The notes beneath the pieces are model-generated. The model saw nothing but the letters and a program-made list of their open reading frames with translations, did no database searches and had not been told where the DNA came from. Shown in pieces: positions 7,586 through 63,031 of a stretch of 64,000 nt of DNA (its first letter is position 1; every line of letters begins with the position of its first letter). The DNA is from Minisyncoccota bacterium (GTDB taxonomy: Bacteria > Patescibacteriota > Minisyncoccia > Phycocordibacterales > Phycocordibacteraceae), in contig JBAYLD010000001.1 in the NCBI GenBank assembly GCA_041664265.1, positions 134,358-198,357 on the forward strand, written 5' to 3'. Made by a program: the position numbers and the translations under genes.

Positions 7586-8889
7586 TGTTGCAAAAGTGCG
7601 TTCAAAGAGCGCCCGGCAGAAGCGAGCGCCGCAGCGAGTGTCGAACGGCCGCTTATCACTCCTCCAATCATACTCGAGAAAACCACATCCGTGTCAGCAG
7701 GCAGTGGGGACAGCCATCCTTTTGCATAGAGGGCCTCGGCATAGGCAACCGCGGCCACTGGATCATCGGGCGCAACAGCGAGCCCATTTAACACGGTTGG
7801 CGCGAGCCCTGTCTCTGCGGCCGCAACAGCCTGCTCCTCTAGATTCGTGAGAAGCGCGGCGGCCTGATACGCTCCCGAAGCGTTTTTAGCGCCATTTGGG
7901 ATCATGAACGCATACACCAAGCCATACACACTCTTCGTCTCGGCAGTCGCCGGCTGCGGCAGAGGCGCGACACCGAAGGTGAGGTTCGGATTCGCCGCCG
8001 CGAAGAAACGTGCCTCAGAAGCATACCCGATATAGAGCGCGAGATCGCCTGCAAGAAATGCCTGTTGGGAGTCCGGCAAGGAGGCATTCCAGGTGTACGA
8101 GACTTTCGACGGATCGGCAAACTGCGTATAGAAGCCGAGCACCGCCTGTCCAACCGGCGCGCCGGCGCCGCCCGAAAGCTTCTCGCCTAAATCAGCAACG
8201 AGATCACCGCTGAATGAATATGAGGAGATTGGCGCGCCCGTTTGGAGGAAGAGTGTGGAGAGTATACCCCGCGCGTTGTGCACATTATCATAGGTGCCCA
8301 GTGCGATGAGTCCGCGCGTGATCTGCCGCGCAGGAGTGAGAACCGCAGTGCCCGGCACCAGGCCGGTCAACGCCTCCCAGGTCGCAGGCGGCCTCGCGAT
8401 GCCGTTTGAAGCGAGAAGGGAGCGATTTGAGAAGAGTACCAGCGGGTCGACAAGGAACGGTATGCCGTAGTAGCCGTCTGGAGCCGCGAAGAGCTCCCCC
8501 TCCCCAATGAAGGTGTTCGTAAAGGCGGCTGCGGAGAGGGTGCTGGACGGTATCGGCATAATGAACTTCGCGATTGCATGAAGCTCTTCCTGCGAAGCGA
8601 GCACGAGATCGGGTGCGGCTCCCGTCGCTATCGCCGCGGCGAGATCGTTCTGAAGCGTCGCAGAATCCTTTTGCACATACGATACGCTCTTAAGCGCCGT
8701 TGCGGACTTTGCGATTTCAACGAGAGCAGACTGCACACCCTCCTTCGGCAAGGTACCCCAGATAACGACCGCCCCGACCGCGTCTTCTTTGCTGCCATCA
8801 CTTGTGTATGTTGCGAAGACGAAGAGACCGATGAGCGCGGCGAGGCCGAACACGCCGAGTAAAACACCTTGGAAGAGAGAGATTTTCAT
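7582..8889 (-). CDS. ABC-transporter family-1 extracellular solute-binding protein (orphan)
   Basis: 435 aa. N-terminal TM anchor. VVIWGTLP, TGAAPDLVLASQEEL and YGIPFLVDPLVLFSNRSLL...PPATWEAL are typical of SBP_bac_1. No permease or ATPase nearby. Confidence 0.6.
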   Translation of the reverse strand: MKISLFQGVLLGVFGLAALIGLFVFATYTSDGSKEDAVGAVVIWGTLPKEGVQSALVEIAKSATALKSVSYVQKDSATLQNDLAAAIATGAAPDLVLASQEELHAIAKFIMPIPSSTLSAAAFTNTFIGEGELFAAPDGYYGIPFLVDPLVLFSNRSLLASNGIARPPATWEALTGLVPGTAVLTPARQITRGLIALGTYDNVHNARGILSTLFLQTGAPISSYSFSGDLVADLGEKLSGGAGAPVGQAVLGFYTQFADPSKVSYTWNASLPDSQQAFLAGDLALYIGYASEARFFAAANPNLTFGVAPLPQPATAETKSVYGLVYAFMIPNGAKNASGAYQAAALLTNLEEQAVAAAETGLAPTVLNGLAVAPDDPVAAVAYAEALYAKGWLSPLPADTDVVFSSMIGGVISGRSTLAAALASAGRSLNALLQQ

Positions 8890-8892
8890 AGA

Positions 8893-9432
8893 TTAAGGGG
8901 CAGTAAATAATATTCCATAATGATGCGGCCCCGCGCGGAATGATTTCACCTTATGGAAACCATTATTGATAAAAAGTTCCTCAGCCTCGTGCTCGGTCAC
9001 GATGTGCTCGGGTGAGGGGCCCATGCCGCCATAGCTGCCAGCCCAATCGATAAGCATGAGTTTGCCGCCCGGCTTCAGCACGCGCCGCACTTCCTCGAGG
9101 AGCCCGGGGCGATGCTCGATCTGGAAGAGCGTGTTCGCGAGTATGACGGCGTCGAGCGTCGCGTCACGCAGGTGCGTACCGCCTGACTTCTCGATATTGC
9201 CCCACACCGCGTCGATGACGCCGTGGTGCGCCGCGTGCATAGTGAGCTTCAAGTGCTTCAGCACATCCTCCTGCACATCAATCGCATACACCTTCCCACC
9301 GTTGCCTTCGACAATCGCGGCGGCCGCACGCGCATAGTGGCCGCTCCCGGTGCCGAAATCAGCAACCCTCATTCCCTCGCGGAGTCCGAGCTGAAGGACA
9401 GCATCTCTGGGAGAACTAAACTGCGCATTCAT
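8893..9432 (-). CDS. Class I SAM-dependent methyltransferase
   Basis: Start set at the internal Met (MNAQFSS...). The upstream part of the ORF-track frame (to 9729) is not protein-like. Motif I VADFGTGSGHY, motif LKPGGKLMLID. Confidence 0.65.
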   Translation of the reverse strand: MNAQFSSPRDAVLQLGLREGMRVADFGTGSGHYARAAAAIVEGNGGKVYAIDVQEDVLKHLKLTMHAAHHGVIDAVWGNIEKSGGTHLRDATLDAVILANTLFQIEHRPGLLEEVRRVLKPGGKLMLIDWAGSYGGMGPSPEHIVTEHEAEELFINNGFHKVKSFRAGPHHYGILFTAP

Positions 9433-9496
9433 GCATATAAAATACCACGTACGGCCCGCCGCGGACCGCACAATCAACATTCTCTTAAAGCAAACC

Positions 9497-10264
9497 TGTG
9501 GACACCGGGTGTCTACAAAAGATTTGCGAGTTAGTATGAGGAAATGGGGTACCGAGAAAACATGACGAACTCTTGTGTGCATGCATACAACCGTGGAGTA
9601 AAGAAAATGCCTATCTTCCGAGAAAAGAACGACCTGTTGCGCCTTTTTAATAGCCTGTACTACTTCAATACCACACAAACGATGCCAGAGAACTGGATCC
9701 GCGATGTTATTAGAGAAGGTGGAATGCAAAAATTAGTGTGGCCATCTATATGGGAACCACGCGAACCGCTAGTTTCAATTCTAGCATGCACTATAATGCC
9801 AAACCATTTCCATTTACTACTTAAAGAGAAAATCGCGGGCGGTATAAGTAAATTTATGCACCGCGTCAGTATGGGATATTCAAAATTCATCAACGAGAAA
9901 TATACCGAGAGTGGTAGTCTCTTCCAAGGCGCTTACAAGGCAAGGTGTATCGATGACGATGCAGATTTAAAAAATCTTGTTGCATATATCATGATAAAGA
10001 ATTCCTTCGAAACATACCCGGGAGGATTGGAGAAAGCGTACAAAGAATTTGACCAGGCTTACGACTACGCGCTTGACTACCCGTTAACCAGTCTTGCCGA
10101 ATACACAGGGAAAAGAAAGCCGGCACTATTAGATCACAATCTCCTACGAGAGTTATTTGAAGAACCAAAATCATTCAAGGAATTCGCTCGCGATTGTATG
10201 CAAAATCGCTTCGAGCAAATGAATGATTATAGTTTCGAGAAAGTGTAGACACCGGGTGTCTACA
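9497..10264 (+). mobile_element. IS200/IS605-family (RAYT-like) element 1, bounded by palindromic hairpins
   Basis: Left hairpin tgtggacaccgggtgtctaca (9497-9517) and right perfect palindrome tgtagacaccgggtgtctaca (10244-10264) flank a Y1 HuH transposase gene. Confidence 0.6.
9544..10248 (+). CDS. Y1 HuH transposase, IS200-like / REP-associated tyrosine transposase-like
   Basis: 234 aa. HuH motif MPNHFHLLL. Downstream Tyr region SGSLFQGAYKARCIDDDADLKNLVAYIMIKN resembles the RAYT WQRRYxxHxIRDE region. Confidence 0.65.
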   Translation: MGYRENMTNSCVHAYNRGVKKMPIFREKNDLLRLFNSLYYFNTTQTMPENWIRDVIREGGMQKLVWPSIWEPREPLVSILACTIMPNHFHLLLKEKIAGGISKFMHRVSMGYSKFINEKYTESGSLFQGAYKARCIDDDADLKNLVAYIMIKNSFETYPGGLEKAYKEFDQAYDYALDYPLTSLAEYTGKRKPALLDHNLLRELFEEPKSFKEFARDCMQNRFEQMNDYSFEKV

Positions 10265-10465
10265 CCTCACAAATATCCTTATCTTATACCGACCGGATGT
10301 GGATAAGAATATTGAGGGAAATAAAAAAGCCGCGAGAGACGGGAGTAATTGCCTTATCGCTTTCCTCCACTAACAACGTCCTCGCGGCTACTTCAGTGTC
10401 CACCAGGAGACTTACTCCCGGCAAAGAGCCGGGTCCGGCCGAACCCGAACTCTATTTACAAAATA

Positions 10466-12952
10466 TCACAGCGCGACCATCGAGGCGATAGAGTCGCCCT
10501 CGCGCATTTTCATGATACGGACACCCTGGGTCGCACGCGAGAGGAGCGAGATCTCGGCAACGGAAGTGCGGATCACCTGCCCTTTCTTAGAGACAACGAC
10601 GAGCTCTTCTTCAGCAAGATCGCCGACGCAGACACGCGCGCCGATGATCTCGCCTGTCTTCGGCGTCACCTCGGCCGTCTTGATGCCCGAGCCGCCGCGA
10701 CCCTGAACCTTGTATTCAGAAATCTTGGTGCGCTTGCCGTATCCCTTGCTCATAATGACCAAGAGAGAAGCGTCACGGGCCGCTGCAGAAACAACCTCCG
10801 CCGAGACCACCCGATCGCCCTTCCGGACAGCCATGCCGCGCACACCGCCAGCCGTACGGCCCATCTCGCGAACGTCTTCTGTATCAAATCGAATCGACTG
10901 CCCCTTTGCGGTAACGATAGAGACCGTGTCGCCCTCGGCCGCATGATGCGCTGAGACAAGCTTGTCGCCCTTTTTCAAATTAATCGCGATAATGCCCGAG
11001 CGGCGCACGTCGGAGAACGACTTCGCTGCGACCCGCTTCACCACCCCCTGCTCGGTCACAAAGACGACCGACGACGCATCGAGCGCCGCACCCTTGGGCA
11101 CCGGCAGTATCGAGGTAACCTTTTCATCGCCCGCGAGCGCGAGGAAGTTCATAATGCTCTTGCCCTTGGTTGCGCGCTTGCCCTCCGGGATCTCGTACAT
11201 TTTGAGCTGGTACGCCTTGCCGAAGTCGGTGAAGAAGAGTAGGTCGCTGTGCGCATTCGTCACCAAGAAGTGCGTTACGATGTCTTCTTCTTTGGTCGCG
11301 ATGTCCACCACGCCGACGCCGCCGCGCTTCTGCCGTCTGTATTCGTTCGGATTCGTTCGCTTCACATAGCCGCCCTGGGTGAGGAGCAGCATCGACTCTT
11401 CGTCTGGTACGAGATCCTCCGCAGAGATGTTCTGCACGCCGCCCTTCACGATTCTCGTGCGACGATCATCGCCATATTTCTCCGCGAGCCCTTCAAGCTC
11501 ACTCTTCACCACGGCGAGGATCTTTTTGGGCGATGAGAGAATCTCCTTCAGCTTCTTGATCAGCGCTTGCACTTCGGTGAGCTCGTCTTCGAGCTTCTTG
11601 CGTTCCAGCCCGGCGAGCTTGGAGAGGCGCATTTCGAGAATCGCTGCCGCTTGCAGCACCGAAAAGCCAAATTTCTTCTGGAGCGCGAGACTCGCCGAAG
11701 GCACATCGGCCGCTTTCTTAATTATCGCGATAACCTCGTCGATATGATCGAGCGCTTTACAGAGACCGAGGAGTATATGTTCGCGCGCTTCAGCCTGCCG
11801 CAAATCAAATTCGGTGCGACGCTTCACCACTTCTTGGCGATGGTGTACGAAATGCTCCAGCATTCCCGAGAGCGAGAGCATTTCTGGTACGCCATCAACC
11901 AACGCGAGCATGTTGTAGTGGAACGTGCTCTCGAGCTCGGTGTGCTTGTATAAAGCGTTCAAAACCGCCTGCGGATGCGCGGTGCCCTTAAGCTCAACCA
12001 CGACGCGGATATCGGTCGTAGATTCATCACGCAAGTCGCGGATACCCTCAAGCTTTTTCTCCTGCACCAGCTCGGCGATGCGTGCGATGAGCTCGCTCTT
12101 GTTTACGCGGTATGGGATGGAGGTGATGATGATGTGCGTATCCTTCTTCCCGTCATCCACAATCTCTGCCTCGCCGCGCACCACCACTGGTCCCTTGCCG
12201 CTGCCATAGACATGCTTGATATCTGTTTGATTAAACGCGACACCGCCCAAGGGGAAATCGGGACCCTTCACAAACTGGAGGAGGTCATCGGTCGTTGCGC
12301 CCGGATTGTCTATAGAATGGATAGCAGCAGCGACGACTTCACGAAGGTTGTGCGGCGGAATGTTGGTCGCCATCCCCACCGCGATGCCGAGCGTGCCGTT
12401 CAAGAGCAAATTCGGCAGTGCAGAAGGGAGCACACTCGGCTCGTCTCGCGTCGCGTCATAATTCGGGTTCCACGCGACGGTCTCCTTCTCGAGATCGGTA
12501 AGGAGCGCCTCGCCGATGCGCGACATCTTTGCTTCGGTATAACGCATCGCCGCTGGCGAGTCGCCGTCGATAGAGCCGAAGTTGCCCTGCCCTAACACAA
12601 GCGGGTAGCGATAGGAGAATTCCTGCGCCATCTTCGCCATAGAGTCATACACCGCAACATCACCGTGCGGATGATATTTGCCGAGCACATCGCCGACCAC
12701 GAGCGCCGATTTGCGGAACTTCGAGCTAGGACCGAGACCGAGGCCCTGCATCGCGTAGAGGATGCGGCGGTGTACCGGCTTCAACCCGTCGCGCACGTCT
12801 GGCAAAGCGCGGCTCGTGATGACCGACATCGCGTAGTCGAGATACGAGGTGCGCATCTCGGCCACGATCGGCTGATCAATGACATTCGCGGCGACTGATT
12901 GCCCCAAAGGGGCAACCGCGTTTCTATCCTTGTCATCTTTACTGCGCGCCAT
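10466..12952 (-). CDS. gyrA: DNA gyrase subunit A
   Basis: 828 aa. [33 protein letters not shown] and other GyrA N-terminal signatures. Long-hairpin terminator downstream at about 10320-10390. Confidence 0.95.
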
Positions 12953-47420: not shown

Positions 47421-48231
47421 CCGTAAGGTGTCCGTAAGGTGTCACCTTACGGAATCAATAAAACGCTAGAAACCGTAAGGTGTCACCTTACGGAACATGC
47501 TACTATTACCGAATATGACAAAGAGAGACGTCCCGTTTGCTGTCGGGGAGTGGTACCACTGTTATAATCGTGGCATTGAGAAGCGTATCGTATTTGAAGA
47601 TATTCGAGATTATCACCGCTTCCTTGAGCTCCTTTATTTGGCGAATGATGAGTTTCCTCTCCGGCGTGACGATATCGGCCTATATAAATTTGAAGAGATA
47701 TTAAAGGTTCCTCGCGGCAAGAAATTAGTCGCTATTGGAGCATTCTGCTTGATGCCAAACCACTTCCACTTAGTTTTGAAAGAGGTTGTGGATGGAGGCA
47801 TTACCGCATTTATGCGGAAAATCGGGACGGCATATGCTCTGTATTTTAATGCACGGCACGGACGGACGGGAAACCTGTTCCTCAAGCCGTTTCGATCCCG
47901 CCATGTATCTACCGATCGCTACTTTCAGCACCTTATCAATTATGTGCACTGTAACCCAGCGGCGCTCTCTGAACCCGAGTGGAAAACCAGCCATGTTGTG
48001 GACCCTCAGTTCTTGGGAGAACAAATCGCCGCATACCCGTATTCAAGTCTTGGTACCCATGCGGGCGCACACACGCCGACCAGCGCTATCCTAGACGCGG
48101 AGGTGTTCTCTCTAGCGCGTACGGTTCAAATACAAAAGATGCTACAGGAAGCGCGACAGTATTATGCTGATTCCGACCTTTCCCTTCCGTAAGGTGTCAC
48201 CTTACATCTGCTGTAAGGTGACACCTTACGG
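47421..48231 (+). mobile_element. IS200/IS605-family (RAYT-like) element 2, with hairpin doublets at both ends
   Basis: Perfect palindrome ccgtaaggtgtcaccttacgg at 47432-47452 and 47473-47493 (left). Related hairpins at 48187-48205 and 48213-48231 (right). These differ from the element 1 hairpins. Confidence 0.65.
47497..48192 (+). CDS. Y1 HuH transposase, IS200-like / RAYT-like (paralog of 9544..10248)
   Basis: 231 aa. YHCYNRG, HuH MPNHFHLVL, Tyr region GNLFLKPFRSRHVSTDRYFQHLINYVHCNP. Confidence 0.65.
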   Translation: MLLLPNMTKRDVPFAVGEWYHCYNRGIEKRIVFEDIRDYHRFLELLYLANDEFPLRRDDIGLYKFEEILKVPRGKKLVAIGAFCLMPNHFHLVLKEVVDGGITAFMRKIGTAYALYFNARHGRTGNLFLKPFRSRHVSTDRYFQHLINYVHCNPAALSEPEWKTSHVVDPQFLGEQIAAYPYSSLGTHAGAHTPTSAILDAEVFSLARTVQIQKMLQEARQYYADSDLSLP

Positions 48232-48633: not shown

Positions 48634-49623
48634 CTACTTACTGACCGGAATTAATTTTGAAAGTTTATGCGCATTACCATGCCTCAACATACCGCGATAC
48701 GATGAGACGTTTCCCTCGCTCGGGTTCCCACTCACCGCTTTCAGCATCCGCCGCTTCGTGCTCGTGCGCAAAACGCGATGATCGGAGAAATGCACCCAGC
48801 CGAGGAAATCAACGCCCGAGGCGAATGTTTTGATGAAAACCTTGTCCGGATGGAGATCAAGCTTTAGCCGATCACGCAAGAATGCTCCTATAGGCTGGAG
48901 GACGTTACACAGATATGATCGGTCACGCGAAAGAATAACAAAATCATCGGAATAGCGGATATAATGGCGTGCTTTTAATTTGTGCTTCACGAACTGATCA
49001 AACTCATTCATATAGATATTCACGAGAAGTTGGCTCGTAAGATTCCCAAGCGGCAAACCCTTACCAAGACCGGTTGAATGAAAACTCTCAATTATGTTTT
49101 GCAGCAAGGCTATAATTCGTTCATCAGGAATATGCCTCCGTAAGATTTCGAGCAATATTTGCTGATCAATGGATGCAAAAAACTTTCTGATGTCACACTT
49201 AAGCACCCATGCGGTCCTCGCGTGGTTTTTACTCTCCTGACATGCATATCGCCTGAAGGCATTCATTGCGCGATGAGTCCCCTTCTCTAGCCGACAAGAG
49301 TATGAGTCGGTGATAAACGTGCTGTTGAAAACCGGATACAAAATTCTGTAGATAGCATGGTGCACCAACCGGTCGCGTACGCTCGCTTTATGTATGTCGC
49401 GCGGTTTTGGATCGCTGATCTTGAAATGGGTATACGAGCCATGTCGGTATGCACCTGAGACAAGATCCGAATGGAGTGTAAAAATATTCCGTACGAGATC
49501 GTATTCGAACGCCTGCACGTCTTTCTTTTTCTGCTTGCCGTGTAAGAACTCTTTCCATGCGTCGAGCAGGTTGTTGGTAGAAATGATATTGTCGTAGGAA
49601 TGGGAGTCACCGATTCTACTCAT
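48634..49623 (-). CDS. Diversity-generating retroelement reverse transcriptase
   Basis: The ORF runs to 49749; the likely start is MSRIGDSH at 49623. RT motifs LKCDIRKFFASID and YIRYSDDFVIL. The DGR-diagnostic motif GLPLGNLTSQLLVNIYMNEFDQFVKH ([ILV]GxxxSQ) is close to Bordetella bRT. No maturase or endonuclease domain. Confidence 0.85.
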   Translation of the reverse strand: MSRIGDSHSYDNIISTNNLLDAWKEFLHGKQKKKDVQAFEYDLVRNIFTLHSDLVSGAYRHGSYTHFKISDPKPRDIHKASVRDRLVHHAIYRILYPVFNSTFITDSYSCRLEKGTHRAMNAFRRYACQESKNHARTAWVLKCDIRKFFASIDQQILLEILRRHIPDERIIALLQNIIESFHSTGLGKGLPLGNLTSQLLVNIYMNEFDQFVKHKLKARHYIRYSDDFVILSRDRSYLCNVLQPIGAFLRDRLKLDLHPDKVFIKTFASGVDFLGWVHFSDHRVLRTSTKRRMLKAVSGNPSEGNVSSYRGMLRHGNAHKLSKLIPVSK

Positions 49624-50031
49624 ACCCTTGAACGTACCCCCCCCCGGACGATTCCGCAAGAAAAACTCGTGGCGGTCGTGTTGAAACTGAAAGAGACATA
49701 CCTTGCGTGGCAGATGGCGCTCCCACATGTCGCAAAAGCTCGACGGCAAACAATAGCCGCGCGCATTGACGGGGCACTTCTCGACACACTTGAATACGCA
49801 TTTCGAGCCGAATATCTCTCGGGACTGCTGAAAATTAAAGCAATCGAGGTATCAATCGAGAGACTCGATGTAGCCAAATTCTTTTTGCTGGTCGGATGGG
49901 AAAGCGATGCCATTACGAACGATCAGCATCTCCGTATAACGGGGCTTCTCATTGAGGCGAGCAAAATGCTCGTTGGTTGGAAGGCATATCTTGAAAAGAA
50001 AACTCCCGCGGATGAGGGCGGGAGAAAGTAA
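49600..50031 (+). CDS. Avd-like (accessory variability determinant, 23S rRNA IVS four-helix-bundle family) protein
   Basis: 143 aa from the ATG; an alternative GTG start at 49669 gives 120 aa. Basic helical protein. LKETYLAWQMALPHVAKARR and C-terminal ITGLLIEASKMLVGWKAYL resemble Avd motifs. It is divergent from the RT gene and antisense to the TR-RT spacer. Confidence 0.5.
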   Translation: MGVTDSTHTLERTPPRTIPQEKLVAVVLKLKETYLAWQMALPHVAKARRQTIAARIDGALLDTLEYAFRAEYLSGLLKIKAIEVSIERLDVAKFFLLVGWESDAITNDQHLRITGLLIEASKMLVGWKAYLEKKTPADEGGRK

Positions 50032-50037
50032 GACCTG

Positions 50038-50145
50038 TTTCGGACGAGAAGGCGATTGTCGGCGTTCCAGCGATTGCCGTTGTCGAGGCTGTTGACGTTC
50101 GCGTTCCAACCGCGCCCATCGCGGTTGACGTTGCCAACCGAGACG
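50038..50145 (-). repeat. DGR template repeat (TR)
   Basis: 108-nt match to the VR. In minus-strand sense it carries AAC/AAT codons (G N V N R D G R G W N A N V N S L D N G N R W N A D N R L L V R) at every variable position. Confidence 0.85.
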
Positions 50146-50354
50146 CTTCGTACTGCACACCATCCATGACACCTACGACGGCCACTGTCTTTCGAATACT
50201 CTCCAGACTGAATCTTGTTTGGGACATTACAGCCCGCCAGTGTGCGGCACCAACTTGTATTTCTTTTTTCGGGTGTTTCTTACCCGGAACCTCGCCACCT
50301 CAAGTCAAGCGTACTGCTTAGCCGGAAATGCCAGCGTGTTCGGATAAAAGTATA

Positions 50355-50382
50355 CCCCACACTTGAGTGATCGAGTGTGGGG
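50355..50382. repeat. GC-rich hairpin downstream of the VR (DGR homing-associated hairpin candidate)
   Basis: ccccacac ttgagtgatcga gtgtgggg. Located about 55-80 nt 3' of the VR end on the coding (minus) strand. Confidence 0.5.
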
Positions 50383-50415
50383 TACTACTGAAATTCAGAA
50401 TACAGAGACCAAGTG

Positions 50416-51120
50416 TCAGAGTTTCTGAGTGTCCAAGTTGCGGACGAGAAGGCGATAGTCGGCGCTCCAGCGATAGCCGCGGCCGAGGCTGCGGACGCCC
50501 GCGCCCCAACCGCGCCCATCGCGGCTGACGTAGCCGACCGAGACGGGATTCTTTGGATTTCCGGTCTCAATGAAGAAGAAATTCCCATACCCGTCGGTAC
50601 GCATCCCGGTCTCCTCACTTTTCTCGGTCTTCTCGACCATTTCTTCTGCCTCCGCAAGAGTCATGGTGTGACCTTGCTTGATGAGGTACTCACCGATAGT
50701 CGCGACATCCGTGTTTGTGTCGATACCGATGATACCGAGAACGGCAACGGCGGCCTCAATGAATGTCCACTCTCGCGAGGGAGCCAGGGTTGTAATGGTG
50801 CAGGCATCGGCGTTCGGCTGATCGGCAGGGAGCCAATTGTCGAAGTCGCTGTCGCGATACGTCCACCGCGAACCTGTGAAGCATTTCTTCGTTTTCTTTT
50901 CCTTAATCGCGGCGAGGCTAGTCGTTGCGCTTACGGAGAATAACGGATCGTGTTTCGCCGGCGGTACAGGCACGCTTTCCTTTTTCACAAACGGCTCTTC
51001 ACGACGAAGAAAGCGTTTTGCCTCCTCCTCGCTAATCGAACCGTTGTGAAGCTTTGTGACGAAATCCAGTGTGATACCGAAACGATCGCTCGCTTGGGTT
51101 CCCGAGCATGTTTCTAACAT
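50416..51120 (-). CDS. DGR target (variable) protein with a C-type-lectin/FGE-like C-terminal VR
   Basis: 234 aa. C-terminus ...GYVSRDGRGWGAGVRSLGRGYRWSADYRLLVRN is encoded by the VR and follows the RGGxW...R...N..R..GFR-like pattern of CLec-fold DGR targets. No signal peptide detected. Confidence 0.7.
   Translation of the reverse strand: MLETCSGTQASDRFGITLDFVTKLHNGSISEEEAKRFLRREEPFVKKESVPVPPAKHDPLFSVSATTSLAAIKEKKTKKCFTGSRWTYRDSDFDNWLPADQPNADACTITTLAPSREWTFIEAAVAVLGIIGIDTNTDVATIGEYLIKQGHTMTLAEAEEMVEKTEKSEETGMRTDGYGNFFFIETGNPKNPVSVGYVSRDGRGWGAGVRSLGRGYRWSADYRLLVRNLDTQKL
50438..50545 (-). repeat. DGR variable repeat (VR) at the 3' end of the target gene
   Basis: 17 TR/VR mismatches: 16 (15 in-repeat plus one at the 3' junction) are at TR adenines (minus strand) and 1 is a synonymous non-A change (gtt/gtc). 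The invariant 3' block cgccttctcgtccg is IMH-like. Confidence 0.85.
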
Positions 51121-57137: not shown

Positions 57138-57716
57138 CTAGAATTGCACTTTGACCGGTTCGTTAGCTGCTTTATCTGACTCTGCAAGCTCGAAGAGATC
57201 CATCAGAGAGAAGCCGAATAGAGAGGCGATGATGTTGCCCGGGAATGACTGGATCGTGGTGTTGAGCGCCATCACGGTCGTGTTATAGAAGCGACGCGCG
57301 GCCTGGATCTTGTCTTCGGTATCGCCGAGCTCTTGCTGGAGCTGGAGGAAGTTCTGATTCGCTTTCAAATCCGGATACGCTTCTGAGACGGCAAAGAGCG
57401 TTTTTAAGGCGCCCGAGAGCTGATTCTCGGCCTGTACCTTGTCGGCAGTGCTGCCCGGCATCGAACTCGATGCCCCCATCGCAGCCGCACGCGCCTTGGT
57501 CACATTCTCAAACGCGCTTGATTCGTGTGCGGCATAACCCTTGACGGTCTCAACAAGATTCGGGATAAGGTCATAGCGGCGCTTCAACTGCACGGCGATA
57601 TCAGCCCATGCCTCCTTCGCGCGGTTGGTAAGCAACACGAGACGGTTAAAGGCGAACACGACCCAAAGCACGATTATGGCAACAAGAGCGAGAAGCACAA
57701 TGGTGGTGGTAGACAT
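57138..57716 (-). CDS. lemA: LemA-family protein
   Basis: Start set at MSTTTIVLL. AWADIAVQLKRRYDLIPNLVETVKGYAAHE is typical of LemA. Classic htpX-lemA pairing. Confidence 0.75.
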   Translation of the reverse strand: MSTTTIVLLALVAIIVLWVVFAFNRLVLLTNRAKEAWADIAVQLKRRYDLIPNLVETVKGYAAHESSAFENVTKARAAAMGASSSMPGSTADKVQAENQLSGALKTLFAVSEAYPDLKANQNFLQLQQELGDTEDKIQAARRFYNTTVMALNTTIQSFPGNIIASLFGFSLMDLFELAESDKAANEPVKVQF

Positions 57717-57738: not shown

Positions 57739-59925
57739 ATGAACATGGAAGACACTCTCGAGAAGCACTTCACGCGGCTTAAGCCGGAGCAGAAGCGGGC
57801 GCTGCATAAGCTAAAAGTTCGCACGATACGCGACCTGCTCTATCACTTCCCCGCTCGCTATGAATCAGCCGGCCAGACAGTGACTATTGCCGGTATTTCA
57901 GCGGGTGCCGAGGTGACGCTTTACGGCACCATCAGGAAGCCCGATGTGCGGAAGACGTGGAAGAGCCGCCGCCCGATCGCCGAGGCGTGGCTCGAGGACG
58001 CTTCGGGCAAGATCAAGATGATGTGGTTCTCTCAGCCCTACATCGCCAAGACGCTCCATGACGGTATGGTGGTGAAGGTGAGCGGGAAGGTAGCGGGAGA
58101 AGGCACCAAGATCTATTTGGCAAATCCAGCGATTGATAAGTCACCTATCGCGCCTGATGCGGCAATTGACTCGCTCTTCACGAGCCGAGGAGACACCTCG
58201 CAGCGAGGAGTCACCTCAGCTCTGTATCCGATTTATCCCGAGAGCCAAGGTGTCTCCTCGCTCTGGTTCTTGCACGCGGTGAAGAAAATATTTGAGACGG
58301 GAGTGCACGAAGGCATTGAGGACCCAATCCCGCCTGAGATCCTTGCACGCTACAATTTGCCATCGCTCTCTGCCGCACTCGTGTTTATACACGCACCGAA
58401 GAAGCTTTCTGATGCCGCGGCGGCGCGCAAGCGCTTCGCCTTTGAAGAAATCTTCGCGCTTCAAATACGAATGCAACAAAATCGGCAATGTCGCAGTGAG
58501 GAGAGAGCCCTGGCAGTAAACGTGGACATAGCGGCGAGACGCCGCGTCAACGACTTCATCGCCTCGTTCCCCTTCCCCGCCACGGCCGCACAGACGCAGG
58601 CGATCGAAGCAATCGTCGCCGACTTCGAGAAATCAAACCCCATGTTGCGACTCCTCGAGGGCGACGTGGGCAGCGGTAAAACTGCCGTCGCCGCCGCGAC
58701 CGCTTATTTGGTGGCGACATCACTACCTCGCGGGCGGATCGCCGGCACACTCCAAGTCGCGTATCTCTGCCCCACCGAGATCCTCGCCAAACAGCACTTC
58801 TCTACCTTCGTCTCATATTTTAAAGACCACCCCATCCCAATCGGCCTTATCACCGGGAGCGAATGCCGCAAGTTCCCTTCTCGCGTGCGGTATGAAGAAT
58901 CCGCCAAGCTCTCGAAGGCGGCGTTTAAGAAGATGGTGGCGAATGGCGAGATCCCGATCGTCATCGGCACGCACGCGCTCATCGAGAAGTCGCTCGCCTT
59001 TAAATATTTTGCCTATGCGATCGTCGACGAACAGCATCGCTTCGGCACGGCGCACCGACAGAAGCTCGTTATGAAAGGTGATGTGGCCCCTCATTTACTC
59101 TCTATGACCGCGACGCCGATCCCGCGCACGCTCGCGCTCGCGCTCTATGGCGACCTTGATCTCACACTCCTCGACGAGATGCCGGTGGGTAGGAAAAAGG
59201 TCATTACCGAGGTACTGGGCTCAAAAGAGCGCGAACGCGCCTACGAGCGCGTTCGCGCCGAACTCGCCCTCGGCCACCAGGCGTATGTGATCTGCCCCCG
59301 AATAGACGAGCCTGACCCGGCCAAAGAGCTCGCGCTCCAAACCAAATCGGTAAAGGCCGAAGCGGCACGGCTCCAAAAAGAGGTCTTCCCTGAAGCAGTT
59401 ATAGACATCCTACACAGCAAGATGACGCCAAAAGAGAAGGAGGACGTGATGAAAGAATTTGAGAATGGAAAAATAAATATCCTCGTTGCAACGTCTGTAG
59501 TAGAAGTGGGTGTGAACGTCGCGAACGCGACCGTGATCCTTATTGAGGGCGCCGAACGATTCGGGCTCGCCCAGCTGCATCAGCTCCGCGGGCGAGTGAT
59601 CCGCTCGATCCATCAGTCCTACTGCTTCGCCCTGCCCGAGTCGAGCGGCGAGACCACGCGCGAGCGAATGAAAGCGTTTATGCAGGCGAAAAACGGCTTC
59701 GAGCTCGCCGAATATGACCTCGCGCTCCGTGGTGCGGGCGAGCTCGCGGGCGGCAAGCAGTGGGGTGTCTCTGACATCGCGATGGAGGCGTTAAAGAATA
59801 TTAAATTGGTCGAAGCCGCTCGCACCGAGGCGGCGACCCTCGTCGCCGCCGATCCCGACCTTAAAAACCACCCCGCCCTCTCCGCTCGCGCCGCCACGGC
59901 GGATAAAGAGATGCATTTAGAGTAA
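57739..59925 (+). CDS. recG: ATP-dependent DNA helicase RecG, carrying an in-frame palindromic-repeat insertion
   Basis: Start set at MNMEDTL. Walker A GDVGSGKTAV, DEQHRFG, wedge/OB N-terminal domain. The 79-nt inverted-repeat element at 58185-58263 encodes SRGDTSQRGVTSALYPIYPESQGVSS. Confidence 0.85.
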   Translation: MNMEDTLEKHFTRLKPEQKRALHKLKVRTIRDLLYHFPARYESAGQTVTIAGISAGAEVTLYGTIRKPDVRKTWKSRRPIAEAWLEDASGKIKMMWFSQPYIAKTLHDGMVVKVSGKVAGEGTKIYLANPAIDKSPIAPDAAIDSLFTSRGDTSQRGVTSALYPIYPESQGVSSLWFLHAVKKIFETGVHEGIEDPIPPEILARYNLPSLSAALVFIHAPKKLSDAAAARKRFAFEEIFALQIRMQQNRQCRSEERALAVNVDIAARRRVNDFIASFPFPATAAQTQAIEAIVADFEKSNPMLRLLEGDVGSGKTAVAAATAYLVATSLPRGRIAGTLQVAYLCPTEILAKQHFSTFVSYFKDHPIPIGLITGSECRKFPSRVRYEESAKLSKAAFKKMVANGEIPIVIGTHALIEKSLAFKYFAYAIVDEQHRFGTAHRQKLVMKGDVAPHLLSMTATPIPRTLALALYGDLDLTLLDEMPVGRKKVITEVLGSKERERAYERVRAELALGHQAYVICPRIDEPDPAKELALQTKSVKAEAARLQKEVFPEAVIDILHSKMTPKEKEDVMKEFENGKINILVATSVVEVGVNVANATVILIEGAERFGLAQLHQLRGRVIRSIHQSYCFALPESSGETTRERMKAFMQAKNGFELAEYDLALRGAGELAGGKQWGVSDIAMEALKNIKLVEAARTEAATLVAADPDLKNHPALSARAATADKEMHLE
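58185..58263. repeat. Intragenic palindromic repeat in recG (GGAGACACCTCGC family)
   Basis: ccgaggagacacctcgcagcgaggagtcacctc...ccaaggtgtctcctcgctc. 12-14 bp terminal inverted repeats. The core is shared with tsaD 31763-31794 (aggagacacctcgccttcgcgaggagtcacct). Confidence 0.6.
59869..59918 (+). repeat. 50-bp perfect direct repeat, copy 1 (3' end of recG)
   Basis: caccccgccctctccgctcgcgccgccacggcggataaagagatgcattt. Identical copy at 60464-60513. Confidence 0.9.
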
Positions 59926-59949
59926 TGGTGTAGAATTAAAGAAAGTCTT

Positions 59950-60411
59950 ATGAAAAACTATCCGAAAATAAATATAGGCATTGGTGGCGTTATCCTTCGC
60001 GGCAAGTCAAAAATCCTTCTGACTAAACGGAAAACTGACCCGTCGGTTTGGACAATTCCAAGCGGCTATATGGAGAAAGATGAAAATATATTTGAAACAA
60101 TCATAAGAGAGGCGAAGGAGGAAACAAATATTGTCATAAAACCACGAGGTGTTGTTGGAGTACGGCAGCGAATTACCGAAAAAGAAGGAAATAACTTTTG
60201 GATACTTACAATCGCTGATTACAAATCTGGGAAAGTCACGCCGGACAATTCTGAAATTTTAGAAACGCAATTCATACCATTATCAAAGGCTTTACAAGAA
60301 AAAATAACACCTGTGACCAAATACATACTAAAAATGCTATTAAAAAATAAACTGCAGATTCTTCTGCCGCAAAAAAGTCTTGATCAGAAACAGTATAGGC
60401 TTTTTTCTTAG
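59950..60411 (+). CDS. Nudix hydrolase (on an AT-rich inserted cassette)
   Basis: 153 aa. Nudix box GYMEKDENIFETIIREAKEETNI. Local base composition is clearly more AT-rich than the surroundings. Confidence 0.75.
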   Translation: MKNYPKINIGIGGVILRGKSKILLTKRKTDPSVWTIPSGYMEKDENIFETIIREAKEETNIVIKPRGVVGVRQRITEKEGNNFWILTIADYKSGKVTPDNSEILETQFIPLSKALQEKITPVTKYILKMLLKNKLQILLPQKSLDQKQYRLFS

Positions 60412-60463
60412 AGTTAAGCTCTCATAAATATGAAAAGCAGAAGCAGGAGAAGTTTACCACATT

Positions 60464-60513
60464 CACCCCGCCCTCTCCGCTCGCGCCGCCACGGCGGATA
60501 AAGAGATGCATTT
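60464..60513 (+). repeat. 50-bp perfect direct repeat, copy 2 (recreates a recG-like 3' end, ...EMHLE stop)
   Basis: Identical to 59869-59918, followed by ggaataa. Confidence 0.9.
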
Positions 60514-60545
60514 GGAATAAATATGGACTTACGATGTCCATAACT

Positions 60546-60620
60546 TGGTACGCCCAGAGGGACTCGAACCCCCAACCAATCGCGTATAAGGCGACTGCTC
60601 TACCATTGAGCTATGGGCGT
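60546..60620 (-). tRNA. tRNA-Ile (anticodon TAT), CCA encoded
   Basis: Reverse complement ACGCCCATAGCTCAATGGTAGAGCAGTCGCCTTATACGCGATTGGTTGGGGGTTCGAGTCCCTCTGGGCGTACCA. Anticodon loop CTTATAC. A1-U72 acceptor pair. Confidence 0.75.
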
Positions 60621-60633
60621 GTGCAGCACGTGC

Positions 60634-62559
60634 TTATACTACCGCAATTTGGTCTTCTTCGCGCTTTTTGGGGATGATGCCGTGGGCGATGAGGATCTTC
60701 TCGAAGCCAGCGCGCTCGACGGTCTCCTTCTCGATGAGCTCTTTGGCGATGGCGTCGAGCGCGTCGCGATGCTCACTGATAACCTTCTTCGCGCGCGCCT
60801 TCGCCTCCTCAATAATGCGCGCAACCTCTGAATCGATCTCGGCAGCGACATGGTCAGAGTACGGCTCGTTCCCGAGTTGACGATCGCCAAACGCGATCGG
60901 CCCCAACTTCTCGCTCATGCCATAGCGGATCACCATATCGCGCGCGATCGCTGTGATGACCATAAGATCATTAGAAGGACCGGTCGTGACATCGTTGAAG
61001 AGCATCTCCTCCGCGACATAGCCACCCAAGGTCGCCGCAATATCATCAAGAAACTGCTTCTTTGAGAACAATTTTTTGTCTTCAAAGGGGAGTTTGAGCG
61101 TATAGCCAGCCGCGCGCCCGCGGCTGATGATGGAGATCTTGTGCACCGGATCGGCATGCTCGAGTATCGAGGAGACAAGCGCGTGGCCGGCTTCATGATA
61201 CGCCGTGAGCTCCTTCTCCTTCTTTGAGAGCAAGTGGCTCTTGCGTTCGGGCCCGAGCATCACCTTCTCGATGGAGCGGATCAGGTCATATTGGGTTATT
61301 TCTGTCCGACTCTCGCGCGCAGCGAGAATCGCACCCTCGTTCATGAGGCTGTAGAGCTCGGCGCCTGAGAAGCCGGGCGTTCGCTCGGCGACAACAGCGA
61401 GGCTCACATCAGGACCCAAGGGCTTCTTGCGCGCGTGGATCTGCAATATTTCTTCGCGATCGCGCCGGTCGGGTAAGTCGATAGTCACGCGCCGGTCGAA
61501 GCGCCCCGGCCGCAAGAGCGCGGAGTCAAGCACATCGGGCCGGTTCGTCGCCGCCATGACCACAACCTTTTCGTGGGGTTCAAAGCCGTCCATCTCGACA
61601 AGAATCTGGTTGAGCGTCTGTTCGCGCTCGTCGTTGCCGCCGCCCATCCCCGAGCCGCGCACGCGACCAACCGCATCGATCTCATCGATAAAGATGATCG
61701 CGGGCGCGGCCTTCTTCGCCATTTGGAAGAGGTCGCGCACGCGCGAAGCACCGACCCCGACGAACATCTCGACGAACTCGGAGCCCGAAATAGAAAAAAA
61801 CGGCACTCCAGCCTCGCCCGCGACCGCGCGCGCGAGGAGGGTCTTCCCTGTCCCAGGCGCGCCCATGAGAATGATGCCCTTGGGGATACGCGCGCCGATA
61901 TCGAGAAACTTCTTTGGGTTCTTGAGGAAGTCGACGATCTCAAGCAACTCCTCCTTTGCTTCGCGCGCACCCGCAACATCGGCAAAGGTCACGCGCTGCG
62001 TCACGTCGGCCGGATCGATAACGCGCGCCTTCGACTGCCCGAAGGTGAATGCCTGCATACCCGCGCCCCGTACCTGCCGTGAGAGGAACCAGAAGAGAAA
62101 TGCGACGAACAAGAGCATCAAGACGGTCGGGCCGAGCGTCACGAGCCAGAATTCAAGCCCCGATTGGCCCTGGATCGTGATAGCGACTTTGGCGAGTTCT
62201 GTGGGCGTCACGCCATACGTCGCCAGGGTTTCGGGGAGACCGGCGGAGGGATCCTTGCGCGAGGACTTTACCGATCCATCGACATACGTGAGGTTAAGAG
62301 AATCACCGCTCACGGTAATCGAGCTCACCTTCCCCAAGACGACATCGGCAGCGACAGCCGAGAGCGGGATCTCGTCCGTCGGCTGGACGAAGCTCGCCAC
62401 CAGCGAGTATGCGCTCATCAAGAAAAGGAATATGAGGATCGTCGTTGTGAGATTGCCAAAGAAGGATGGGCCGCCAATAATGCGGCGCCAGCCGCGGCGC
62501 CCCTTCGGGGGCATCGCGGTTTTTCTGATCTTCGGTTTTTTTGCTGGTGCTGGTGCCAT
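60634..62559 (-). CDS. ftsH: ATP-dependent zinc metalloprotease FtsH
   Basis: Walker [22 protein letters not shown] region, HEAGHAL zinc motif. Start moved to MAPAPAKK (62559) because the ORF-track N-terminus (to 62646) overlaps the tmRNA 3' end. Confidence 0.9.
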
Positions 62560-62584
62560 ACAGAGCACTATACCTTGTTTTTTG

Positions 62585-62981
62585 TGGAGGTGTCGAGAGT
62601 CGAACTCGAGTCCGAATCCATCAATGAAAGCGAGTCTACGACGCATAGTCAGCGTTAATTTTAGGGCAGGATGCGAAGAACGCAGACGAAACCATTCCTG
62701 CCCGATCCCTTATTTAGACGCGCCGGGCGGGAGGCCGGGCATCGATCCTACAGAATATTCCGCCCCTGCCTCCGGCTGTAAGAACCCGAGAGGAGAGACG
62801 TCGCTAGGCGAGCGGTTAGGCTGCGTAGGCGAACGCGAAGTCACGCGCACCGAAGTACGGAGACTTCACGCTTGCAAGAGTGTTCTTGGCAAGTTTGGTT
62901 GCTTGTTGGATGTAAGTGTCATACAAGCTTGCACTGCGTCGCACGTCTTTCAAAGTACAGACCGTCAAAGCCGGTCACCCC
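62585..62981 (-). ncRNA. ssrA: tmRNA (transfer-messenger RNA)
   Basis: Minus-strand 5' GGGGGTGACCGGCTTTGACGG (E. coli GGGGCUGAUUCUGGAUUCGACGG). 3' GGATTCGGACTCGAGTTCGACTCTCGACACCTCCA tRNA-like T-arm and acceptor. Candidate tag ORF ...GCG CGT GAC TTC GCG TTC GCC TAC GCA GCC TAA ([10 protein letters not shown]). Directly downstream of smpB. Confidence 0.8.
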
Positions 62982-63031
62982 CTGTCAATTGATACGCACG
63001 AATGCCTACAAACTGACAGTGATTGATCGAA

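Follow-up and report, generated by a model that had tools for sequence, protein, structure and literature searches.

A 64,000-nucleotide (nt) stretch of contig JBAYLD010000001.1 from an uncultured, Kaiserbacteria-like Minisyncoccota bacterium (the window) carries recG followed by a short AT-rich cassette with one Nudix hydrolase gene, and the far border of the cassette is a second, displaced copy of the last bases of recG. The cassette is a non-autonomous foreign gene. Comparison of the two recG tails identifies the repeat as two diverged alleles and not as a host target copied in place, and comparison with related genomes shows that the convergent intergenic gap from the stop codon of recG to tRNA-Ile(UAU)/ftsH is an insertion hot spot across the clade, where foreign genes have landed repeatedly. 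The explanation that we favor, at a probability of roughly 45%, is homology-guided recombination by the host after DNA uptake, with a crossover in the recG tail between the chromosome and incoming DNA bearing a tail of its own.

Two recG tails bracket an AT-rich insert

The recG gene lies at 57739-59925 on the plus strand. The public gene call gives a 728-aa protein, and the longest open reading frame (ORF) starts at 57625. The product has the Pfam domains RecG_wedge, DEAD, Helicase_C, and RecG_dom3_C. The first-pass annotation of this DNA reported identical 50-nt direct repeats at 59869-59918 and 60464-60513, the first being the end of recG. This 50-mer (CACCCC...GCATTT) has exactly these two occurrences in the window and none is expected by chance (0 of 100 shuffles). 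Identity continues in register through both stop codons, which extends the repeat to 57 nt (59869-59925 and 60464-60520) with 55 of 57 positions identical. The two mismatches, TTA GAG TAA in copy 1 and TTG GAA TAA in copy 2, are both synonymous. The window holds no further repeats of the recG-tail type.

The direct repeats bound foreign DNA. Copy 1 (59869-59925, plus strand) is the in-frame 3' end of recG and is translated as HPALSARAATADKEMHLE-stop. Copy 2 (60464-60520, plus strand) is untranslated and continuous with native downstream sequence. Were it read, it would end in ...ADKEMHLE-stop as the annotation had stated, and its frame is shut by a TGA 29 codons upstream. The ending of copy 2, TTGGAATAA, is one of the two commonest recG endings (13 of 74 relatives), and the ending of copy 1, TTAGAGTAA, is rare (2 of 74). 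Two public contigs from independent assemblies, JGI Ga0376277_0001050 (123 kb) and ENA MEGAHIT k141_973442 (213 kb), are each 100% identical to the window over recG, both repeats, the Nudix gene, the tRNA, and ftsH.

The segment between the tails (59926-60463, plus strand; 538 nt) has a GC content of ~0.36 against 0.54-0.58, a foreign composition. It is delimited by this composition and by nucleotide homology to other Nudix loci. The 200-nt GC profile that had been proposed as a check falls from 0.62-0.66 at the recG 3' end to 0.34-0.40 across 59900-60400 and returns to 0.58-0.60 in ftsH. The mean of the window is 54% GC, that of the recG 3' end 58-66%, and 60001-60500 is its lowest-GC 500-nt bin. 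The segment opens with TGGT, the same four bases as the start of the minus-strand tRNA-Ile.

The insert carries a foreign Nudix gene

The sole credible ORF between the repeats is 59950-60411 (plus strand), which encodes a 153-aa Nudix hydrolase (PF00293 NUDIX, E = 6e-17 over aa 9-127). Its Nudix box, GYMEKDENIFETIIREAKEETNI at aa 39-61 (60064-60132), fits GX5EX7REUXEEXGU except for N60 in place of G. The box, which had been called canonical, is thus near-canonical by sequence, and the single-gene Nudix assignment stands. No NCBIfam equivalog scored near its cut-off for assignment to a specific Nudix subfamily, and the best PDB matches are generic Nudix proteins (E ~1e-8). A consensus scan of the cassette found no promoter for the gene; TAGAAT at 59931-59936 was noted by eye only.

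Homologues of the 153-aa protein form a family. The closest (78-89% aa identity) come from other CPR (candidate phyla radiation) genomes, where they occupy four or five contexts other than recG: between tsaE and either pilB or an octopine-dehydrogenase-like gene, adjoining trpS, and, in locus L200, 4 nt past the stop codon of a gene that by eye resembles a pilB-type ATPase. These homologues are also AT-rich (34-38% GC inside 46-50% GC genomes), and homologues at ~60% identity come from Patescibacteria with 32-40% GC. None of 80 relatives has the Nudix gene of the window at the recG gap. Nucleotide similarity between the window and the homologous loci is limited to 59930-60435, that is, the gene with ~20 nt upstream and up to 24 nt downstream. 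In the other contexts, no repeat of at least 11 nt brackets the gene, and loci L200-L202 lack the tail motif. The repeat therefore belongs to the recG site and not to the Nudix gene. Composition and context identify the Nudix gene as foreign, as first annotated, apparently horizontally acquired and travelling on its own.

The gap behind recG is filled repeatedly in relatives

RecG orthologues were present in 80 genomes, and the relatives are Candidatus Kaiserbacteria/Paceibacterota genomes (CPR). The order recG, tRNA-Ile(UAU), ftsH is constant in the 62 species-level genomes that have all three landmarks. Spacing varies: recG and the tRNA are -1 to 4778 nt apart, with more than 300 nt in 28 of these genomes, and the tRNA and ftsH are -1 to 4197 nt apart. 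Empty sites are present in eight species, where the recG stop codon is followed by 1-47 nt, tRNA-Ile, up to 30 nt, and the ftsH stop codon. This is the arrangement that the first-pass annotation expected of related genomes. No same-species empty site is on record. Searches for exact matches to the RecG, FtsH, and Nudix proteins recovered only contigs of the same arrangement, and an exact 29-mer of the repeat had no match in the metagenome collection.

Gap ORFs across the 80 species are nearly all singletons. Cargo recognized by Pfam comprises methyltransferases, a UDG-like protein, an N-formylglutamate amidohydrolase, a histidine-kinase fragment, DUF805, a toxin-antitoxin pair, and Nudix proteins.

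At 12 independent loci including the window, the recG tail recurs 0.37-1.8 kb further downstream, and the cargo between the tails differs in each: the Nudix gene, another Nudix gene with a class II aldolase, a ParE-like toxin pair, DUF805, and unknowns. The annotated notion of a specific insertion site is borne out by these eleven further lineages and the eight empty species. The second tail measures 12 nt in L002, 15 nt in L075 and L134, 16 nt in L007 (perhaps ~30 nt counting diverged bases), 20 nt in L056, 31 nt in L034, 40 nt exact in L147, ~40 nt in L138, ~45 nt in L103, ~50 nt in L032, and 77 nt at 83% identity in L012. Repeat length is thus a continuum from 12 to 77 nt with a variable left boundary. 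The right boundary is fixed: copy 2 terminates at a stop codon in all 12 loci and leads into sequence like that of an empty site, which may be a terminator, the promoter of the tRNA, or the tRNA itself on either strand. The L134 repeat extends across the stop codon into the tRNA 3' end by ~11 nt (23 of 26 nt).

All 12 pairs have at least the last 12-15 nt (ATGCAYTTRGARTAR) in common. The last 15 nt of recG are also its best conserved coding part, with 81% mean identity across 61 species against 51-74% for the remainder of the 300 nt at the 3' end. Identity across species is 30-45% in the ftsH tail, and no ftsH-tail duplicates were found. A scan of ~1 Mb of related loci for direct repeats with a first copy that finishes at a long-ORF stop codon yielded recG tails only. 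Most other filled sites have no tail remnant. No shared motif or inverted repeats were found at the cargo ends, no tandem array with three tails was seen, and a degenerate tail pattern found no recG-tail mimic on viral contigs in IMG/VR. As a separate observation, the gap after recG in L001 (8279-9938) holds a RAYT-like ORF (9264-9893) and five or six intergenic copies of the palindrome ACAAGGGGCACCCTTGT.

Paired tails as diverged functional alleles

Mismatches between paired tails in the last 15 nt fall at codon positions 1, 2, and 3 in the ratio 1/1/9, and the codon differences there are 11 synonymous and 0 non-synonymous (p = 0.0014). Differences confined to synonymous sites indicate that each tail once served as a functional gene end, in separate genomes, before the two were brought together. 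Two tails that were both working gene ends exclude duplication in place. L012 provides an individual case. Its copy 2 shares 96% identity with functional recG tails in L127 and L186 and 83% with the L012 tail itself. The L012 cargo between the copies (Nudix and class II aldolase) is common to L094 and L127 at background divergence; L127 has neither the second tail nor the module behind it, and copy 2 of L012 heads that module. The first-pass annotation had read the repeat as a target duplication that restores the end of the host gene. The recG end is indeed preserved, and the duplication is better described, from the pattern of differences, as a pair of alleles of separate origin. It was also observed that the translated recG tail of L012 (3951-4025) is anomalously diverged from its closest relative L094, with 65% identity versus 84-87% in the flanks.

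No recombinase is linked to the cassettes

The search for recombinases covered the 64-kb window, which is the part of the source genome examined, and the related loci. None of the 12 repeat-flanked cargos contains a recombinase, in line with the annotated single-gene cargo without an integrase, which had been taken for a remnant or a cassette mobilized in trans. In the window, tblastn with the L023 recombinase described below gave no match, and 30 ORFs screened with Pfam included no serine or tyrosine recombinase. Pfam analysis of 30 gap ORFs from relatives returned one large serine recombinase (L023) and weak Y1 transposase matches. Ten larger ORFs of metagenome loci were read by eye only, and several such loci are chance pattern matches in unrelated bacteria.

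The L023 island (6503-11355) is a 4.8-kb AT-richer segment that exactly fills the space from the recG stop codon to the 3' end of tRNA-Ile. At its end is a gene for a 539-aa large serine recombinase (Resolvase, Recombinase, and Zn-ribbon domains), whose ORF enters the tRNA by 42 nt. No direct repeats were found at this island, a recombinase gene of this type stands at the end of an insert in L023 only, and the enzyme has no viral relatives in IMG/VR. Six other loci have weaker recombinase homologues a few kb or less from recG.

The borders of the window cassette have no terminal inverted repeats or end hairpins. Folding of 60400-60550 gave z = -0.88, which is not better than shuffles, so there is no attC-like structure. 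An integron cassette was rejected because there is no attC-like hairpin and no intI or attI nearby, the 30 Pfam-screened ORFs of the window including no tyrosine recombinase. A transposon, insertion sequence (IS), or miniature inverted-repeat transposable element (MITE) was rejected because of the missing terminal inverted repeats, the 57-nt repeat, and the synonymous tail differences. By eye, the recG tail agrees at 5-8 of 11 positions per arm with the Escherichia coli dif sequence, and a dif/Xer-like reading was set aside.

The tRNA-Ile and ftsH border

A terminator-like hairpin of 25 nt, within 60522-60551, separates copy 2 from tRNA-Ile. Its sequence at 60522-60542 (minus strand) is followed on that strand by TTTATTCC, and it is the apparent terminator of the tRNA. 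The T-run of the hairpin is the complement of the end of copy 2, and this overlap may help retain those bases. The tRNA-Ile(UAU) gene is at 60546-60620 on the minus strand (ARAGORN; Rfam tRNA, 72.7 bits), with its 3' end towards the cassette. It does follow the cassette as annotated, on the opposite strand and behind the hairpin. The conserved right-hand border of the hot spot is ftsH (60634-62559, minus strand; Pfam AAA and Peptidase_M41; public gene call). A genuine tmRNA (62582-62982; Rfam, 96.8 bits) overlaps the 5' part of the longest ftsH ORF, which places the true ftsH start near 62559, in agreement with the public calls.

Among close relatives, tRNA-Ile(UAU) occurs in both orientations and as five or more alleles that differ in their acceptor stems, so the gene itself appears to be exchanged. 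Partial tRNA duplicates were found at the recG-ftsH locus in relatives. A 28-nt tRNA-Ile 3'-end fragment follows copy 2 in L032 (8691-8718), before a second cargo and the intact tRNA, and another lies beside the recG tail copy in L134 (4058-4068). These fragments next to recG tail copies indicate separate insertions at the tRNA 3' end.

Several further observations concern the tRNA. Among L001-L080, the tRNA-Ile(UAU) at this position is on the plus strand in 23 genomes and on the minus strand in 39. A complete tRNA-Ile(UAU) with a conserved leader of ~25 nt (CGGGCGAGGA..GAGAGAAATA) sits inside the anticodon loop of another, split tRNA-Ile gene in L031 (9124-9349) and L030 (about 5313-5523), and also in L024, L039, L057, and L072. 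In 31 loci (e.g., L002 7014-7742), a conserved HTH_23 protein of 217-255 aa adjoins the 5' side of tRNA-Ile. A LAGLIDADG-like motif (LLIAGLFLYWGEGGK) was seen in it by eye only, and Pfam does not support its assignment as a homing endonuclease.

Discussion

Direction, topology, and catalyst of the event are what we infer from these observations. Incoming DNA would have brought its own recG tail next to the cargo, and a single crossover would have occurred within the conserved recG tail between chromosome and incoming DNA. The outcome would be additive, through either a Campbell-type single crossover or a one-sided homologous join. The incoming tail (copy 1, TTA GAG TAA) would complete recG, which remains intact and is then followed by the cargo. 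The resident tail (copy 2, TTG GAA TAA) would be pushed away, still joined to its native terminator hairpin and tRNA. The cassette-free junction would have the form ...GATGCATTT[A/G]GA[G/A]TAA-ATATGGACTTACG, and a circle junction the form ...GAAGTTTACCACATT-[one tail]-TGGTGTAGAATTAAAG. For host recombination, the recG tail would be the sole well-conserved anchor at this border.

Host recombination is favored because there is no linked recombinase, no fixed repeat length, and no cargo-end motif or conserved arm, and because partial tRNA duplicates occur at the locus and the recG tail is uniquely conserved at the border. Several points weigh against it. The 12-16 nt of homology in the shortest repeats is too short for RecA, and later erosion or an illegitimate junction is needed to account for them. 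The required donor, with a Nudix gene directly behind recG, was not found; the closest homologues adjoin trpS, tsaE, or pilB. Both mismatches in the window fall in the last 7 nt after 50 identical bases, which resembles a defined crossover point and equally suits a site-specific enzyme. Upstream of the last 15 nt, the third-position bias of paired-tail mismatches is weak (13/9/18, p = 0.08), as would be expected had that arm of copy 2 been a non-coding attP arm. Sliding-window nearest-neighbor mapping of recombination tracts in recG and ftsH was uninformative because all relatives are ~75-86% identical, with none available above ~80% nucleotide identity.

A recombinase acting in trans is the other serious explanation, and both place the crossover inside the recG tail. 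The tail, possibly with the tRNA 3' end, would be the attB site of an unlinked site-specific recombinase, the attP site of the cassette would mimic the tail, and the two copies would be attL and attR. The cassette would then be either a very small integrative element that lacks a recombinase or what is left of a larger element. We hold this to be a realistic possibility, with host recombination the more likely of the two. The recG tail is targeted strictly in 12 lineages with the right boundary exactly at the stop codon, and every pair would fit a crossover within ATGCAT (~15 nt ahead of the stop) or immediately to the left of this motif. The L134 repeat is centered on the recG/tRNA junction like an att site, the serine recombinase island of L023 sits exactly in the recG-tRNA gap, and weaker recombinase homologues lie close to recG in six other loci. 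Dehalococcoides offers a precedent in a 540-aa CcrB-family enzyme with 20-bp ssrA repeats and islands free of integration genes (PMC3146451). However, 0 of 12 cargos here have a recombinase, whereas sixteen Dehalococcoides islands have an integration module (PMC3146451). The only recombinase-bearing island here has no repeat, repeats of 12-77 nt are not one att size, and identity in the non-coding arm (50 nt in the window and 40 nt in L147) is far above the need of an enzyme. No conserved arm past the stop codon, common cargo-end motif, three-tail tandem array, or viral tail mimic (IMG/VR) was seen, and the 64-kb window yielded no recombinase. The site-specific integrase implied by the first-pass annotation is thus not established. 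A bolder proposal is an undescribed cassette system in Kaiserbacteria-like CPR, in which recombinase-less cassettes of 0.4-1.8 kb with a replacement recG tail home to the last 15-60 nt of recG and are moved in trans by an unlinked recombinase (e.g., L023-like). We consider this possible but less likely than not. If true, it would be an SCC- (staphylococcal cassette chromosome) or integron-like gene-capture platform on a protein-gene stop codon.

The direction of transfer could also be the reverse. The Nudix gene would already have stood behind recG, and a donor fragment from an empty-site relative (partial recG tail, terminator, tRNA-Ile, ftsH) would have replaced the resident tRNA region, with a homologous right joint in the tRNA or ftsH and an illegitimate left joint downstream of the Nudix gene. 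The variety of tRNA-Ile alleles in both orientations shows that this region is often replaced, copy 2 always carries empty-site-like downstream sequence, and in L012 copy 2 heads a module absent from L127 while the cargo is common to L094 and L127 at background divergence. Even so, the strongly AT-rich Nudix gene looks recently acquired itself, and its placement 4 nt after a stop codon is left unexplained. We rate this account as improbable; separating it from host recombination with an incoming cargo would take closer relatives. Far less probable is a target-site duplication in place by a transposase or staggered break, or a tandem duplication with decay of the second copy. The direct repeats flank an insert, and IS200/RAYT-like genes are present in the window, but 57 nt far exceeds the duplications made by transposases, and the cassette has no terminal inverted repeats or end hairpins. 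To our knowledge, Y1 transposases make no target duplications. Neutral decay of a non-coding copy would not leave every last-15-nt difference synonymous in every pair, nor would it bring copy 2 of L012 closer to the functional tails of other species than to its own partner. Least probable is an assembly artefact, a chimeric join or collapsed repeat, which the annotation had named as its refuter. The source is a metagenome and repeats can mislead assemblers. Nevertheless, assemblies from two different pipelines are base-for-base identical over >6 kb including both copies, which makes an artefact very unlikely; the copies differ at two positions, and the same architecture is found in 11 other genomes.

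Relation to known elements

The architecture matches known recombinase-less elements bounded by gene 3'-end repeats, and differs in its recG target, tiny cargos, variable repeats, and lack of a parent element. SCCmec and the recombinase-less psiSCC elements are inserted at the 3' end of rlmH (orfX) in staphylococci, with fixed repeats of 15-18 bp and the CcrAB/C recombinase. As there, the cargo is flanked by repeats and inserted at the last bases of a protein gene, stop codon included, without disrupting the gene, and recombinase-less cassettes occur. SCC elements are many kb long and mostly carry a recombinase, whereas the repeats here are 12-77 nt, the cargo is 0.4-1.8 kb, and no recombinase is linked. 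A parallel with SCC elements has also been drawn for Dehalococcoides islands (PMC3146451). Cis-mobilizable elements (CIMEs) left by ICESt1/3-type elements (PMC5704250) are similarly bounded by attL/attR-like sequences at a gene 3' end and lack integration or transfer genes. They are decayed integrative and conjugative (ICE) or integrative and mobilizable elements (IME) found beside functional tyrosine-integrase relatives, whereas no parent element or tandem accretion was seen in the 12 cases here.

The Dehalococcoides ssrA islands have 20-bp repeats of the ssrA 3' end, stand in tandem, and are associated with a ~540-aa CcrB-family serine recombinase, and some are integration-free (PMC3146451). 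Low GC behind a single-copy conserved gene, a 3'-end repeat, cargo that varies by lineage, and a serine recombinase of ~540 aa as in L023 are common to both settings. Unlike the loci described here, the Dehalococcoides islands target an RNA gene, have a repeat of constant length (20 bp), form tandem arrays, and in sixteen cases carry an integration module. Like classical tRNA/tmRNA islands, the recG cassette has an identity block from the crossover to the gene end that restores the gene, with the displaced copy as the far border. Such 3'-end islands with an integrase are reportedly the subject of Williams 2002. Here, in contrast, the target is a protein gene, the adjoining tRNA is not duplicated in the window, and there is no integrase.

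In Neisseria, minimal mobile elements occupy hot spots that are filled through homologous recombination within flanking core genes, and homology-facilitated illegitimate recombination is known in transformable bacteria. The recG gap resembles such hot spots in its varied small cargos between the same conserved genes, the absence of mobility genes, and one conserved anchor. Those exchanges normally leave no duplicated gene end, however, and to leave the present scar, either a single crossover with a circular molecule or a second, illegitimate junction is required. Like integron cassettes of ~0.5-1 kb, the recG cassette is a single-gene, recombinase-less insert directed to one site; unlike them, it has a gene tail at its flank and starts ~20 nt before its own start codon.

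The genomes of CPR/Patescibacteria are tiny and densely packed, and their routes of gene gain are little known. The recG-tRNA-Ile(UAU)/ftsH site takes single accessory genes such as Nudix hydrolases, toxin-antitoxin pairs, methyltransferases, and membrane proteins. The second recG tail is a readable scar and could serve as a simple marker by which metagenome-assembled genomes are searched for recently gained genes. Should these organisms become tractable, the site is also a candidate for neutral insertion. If a recombinase acts on the recG tail, it would form a compact gene-capture system in a phylum with none described. If host recombination is responsible, a conserved gene end of 15-60 nt would be a portable homology anchor for additive gene transfer. 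The structure is ordinary for a mobile-element specialist; its recurrence across a CPR clade and the lack of linked recombinases stand out.

Other features of the window

Two AT-rich IS200/RAYT-like Y1 transposase genes are present, each bracketed by its own palindrome: 9544-10248 (Y1_Tnp, E = 2.5e-9; palindrome GACACCGGGTGTC, span 9498-10267) and 47497-48192 (Pfam E = 2.8e-5; palindrome CCGTAAGGTGTCACCTTACGG, span 47473-48231). The 9498-10267 element accounts for the second-lowest-GC zone of the window. Within 4981-6709, four copies of a 50-nt segment (64-84% identity) lie in neighboring ORFs. One of these (5550-6461) has a type IV secretion system (T4SS) pilin-like domain, and the ORFs are therefore probably paralogous small membrane proteins. 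A diversity-generating retroelement occupies 48634-51120. It comprises a reverse transcriptase gene (PF00078; 48634-49749, minus strand), a template repeat at 50037-50145, and a variable repeat at 50437-50545 inside the 3' end of ORF 50416-51120 (minus strand); all core mismatches are at template adenines on the minus strand.

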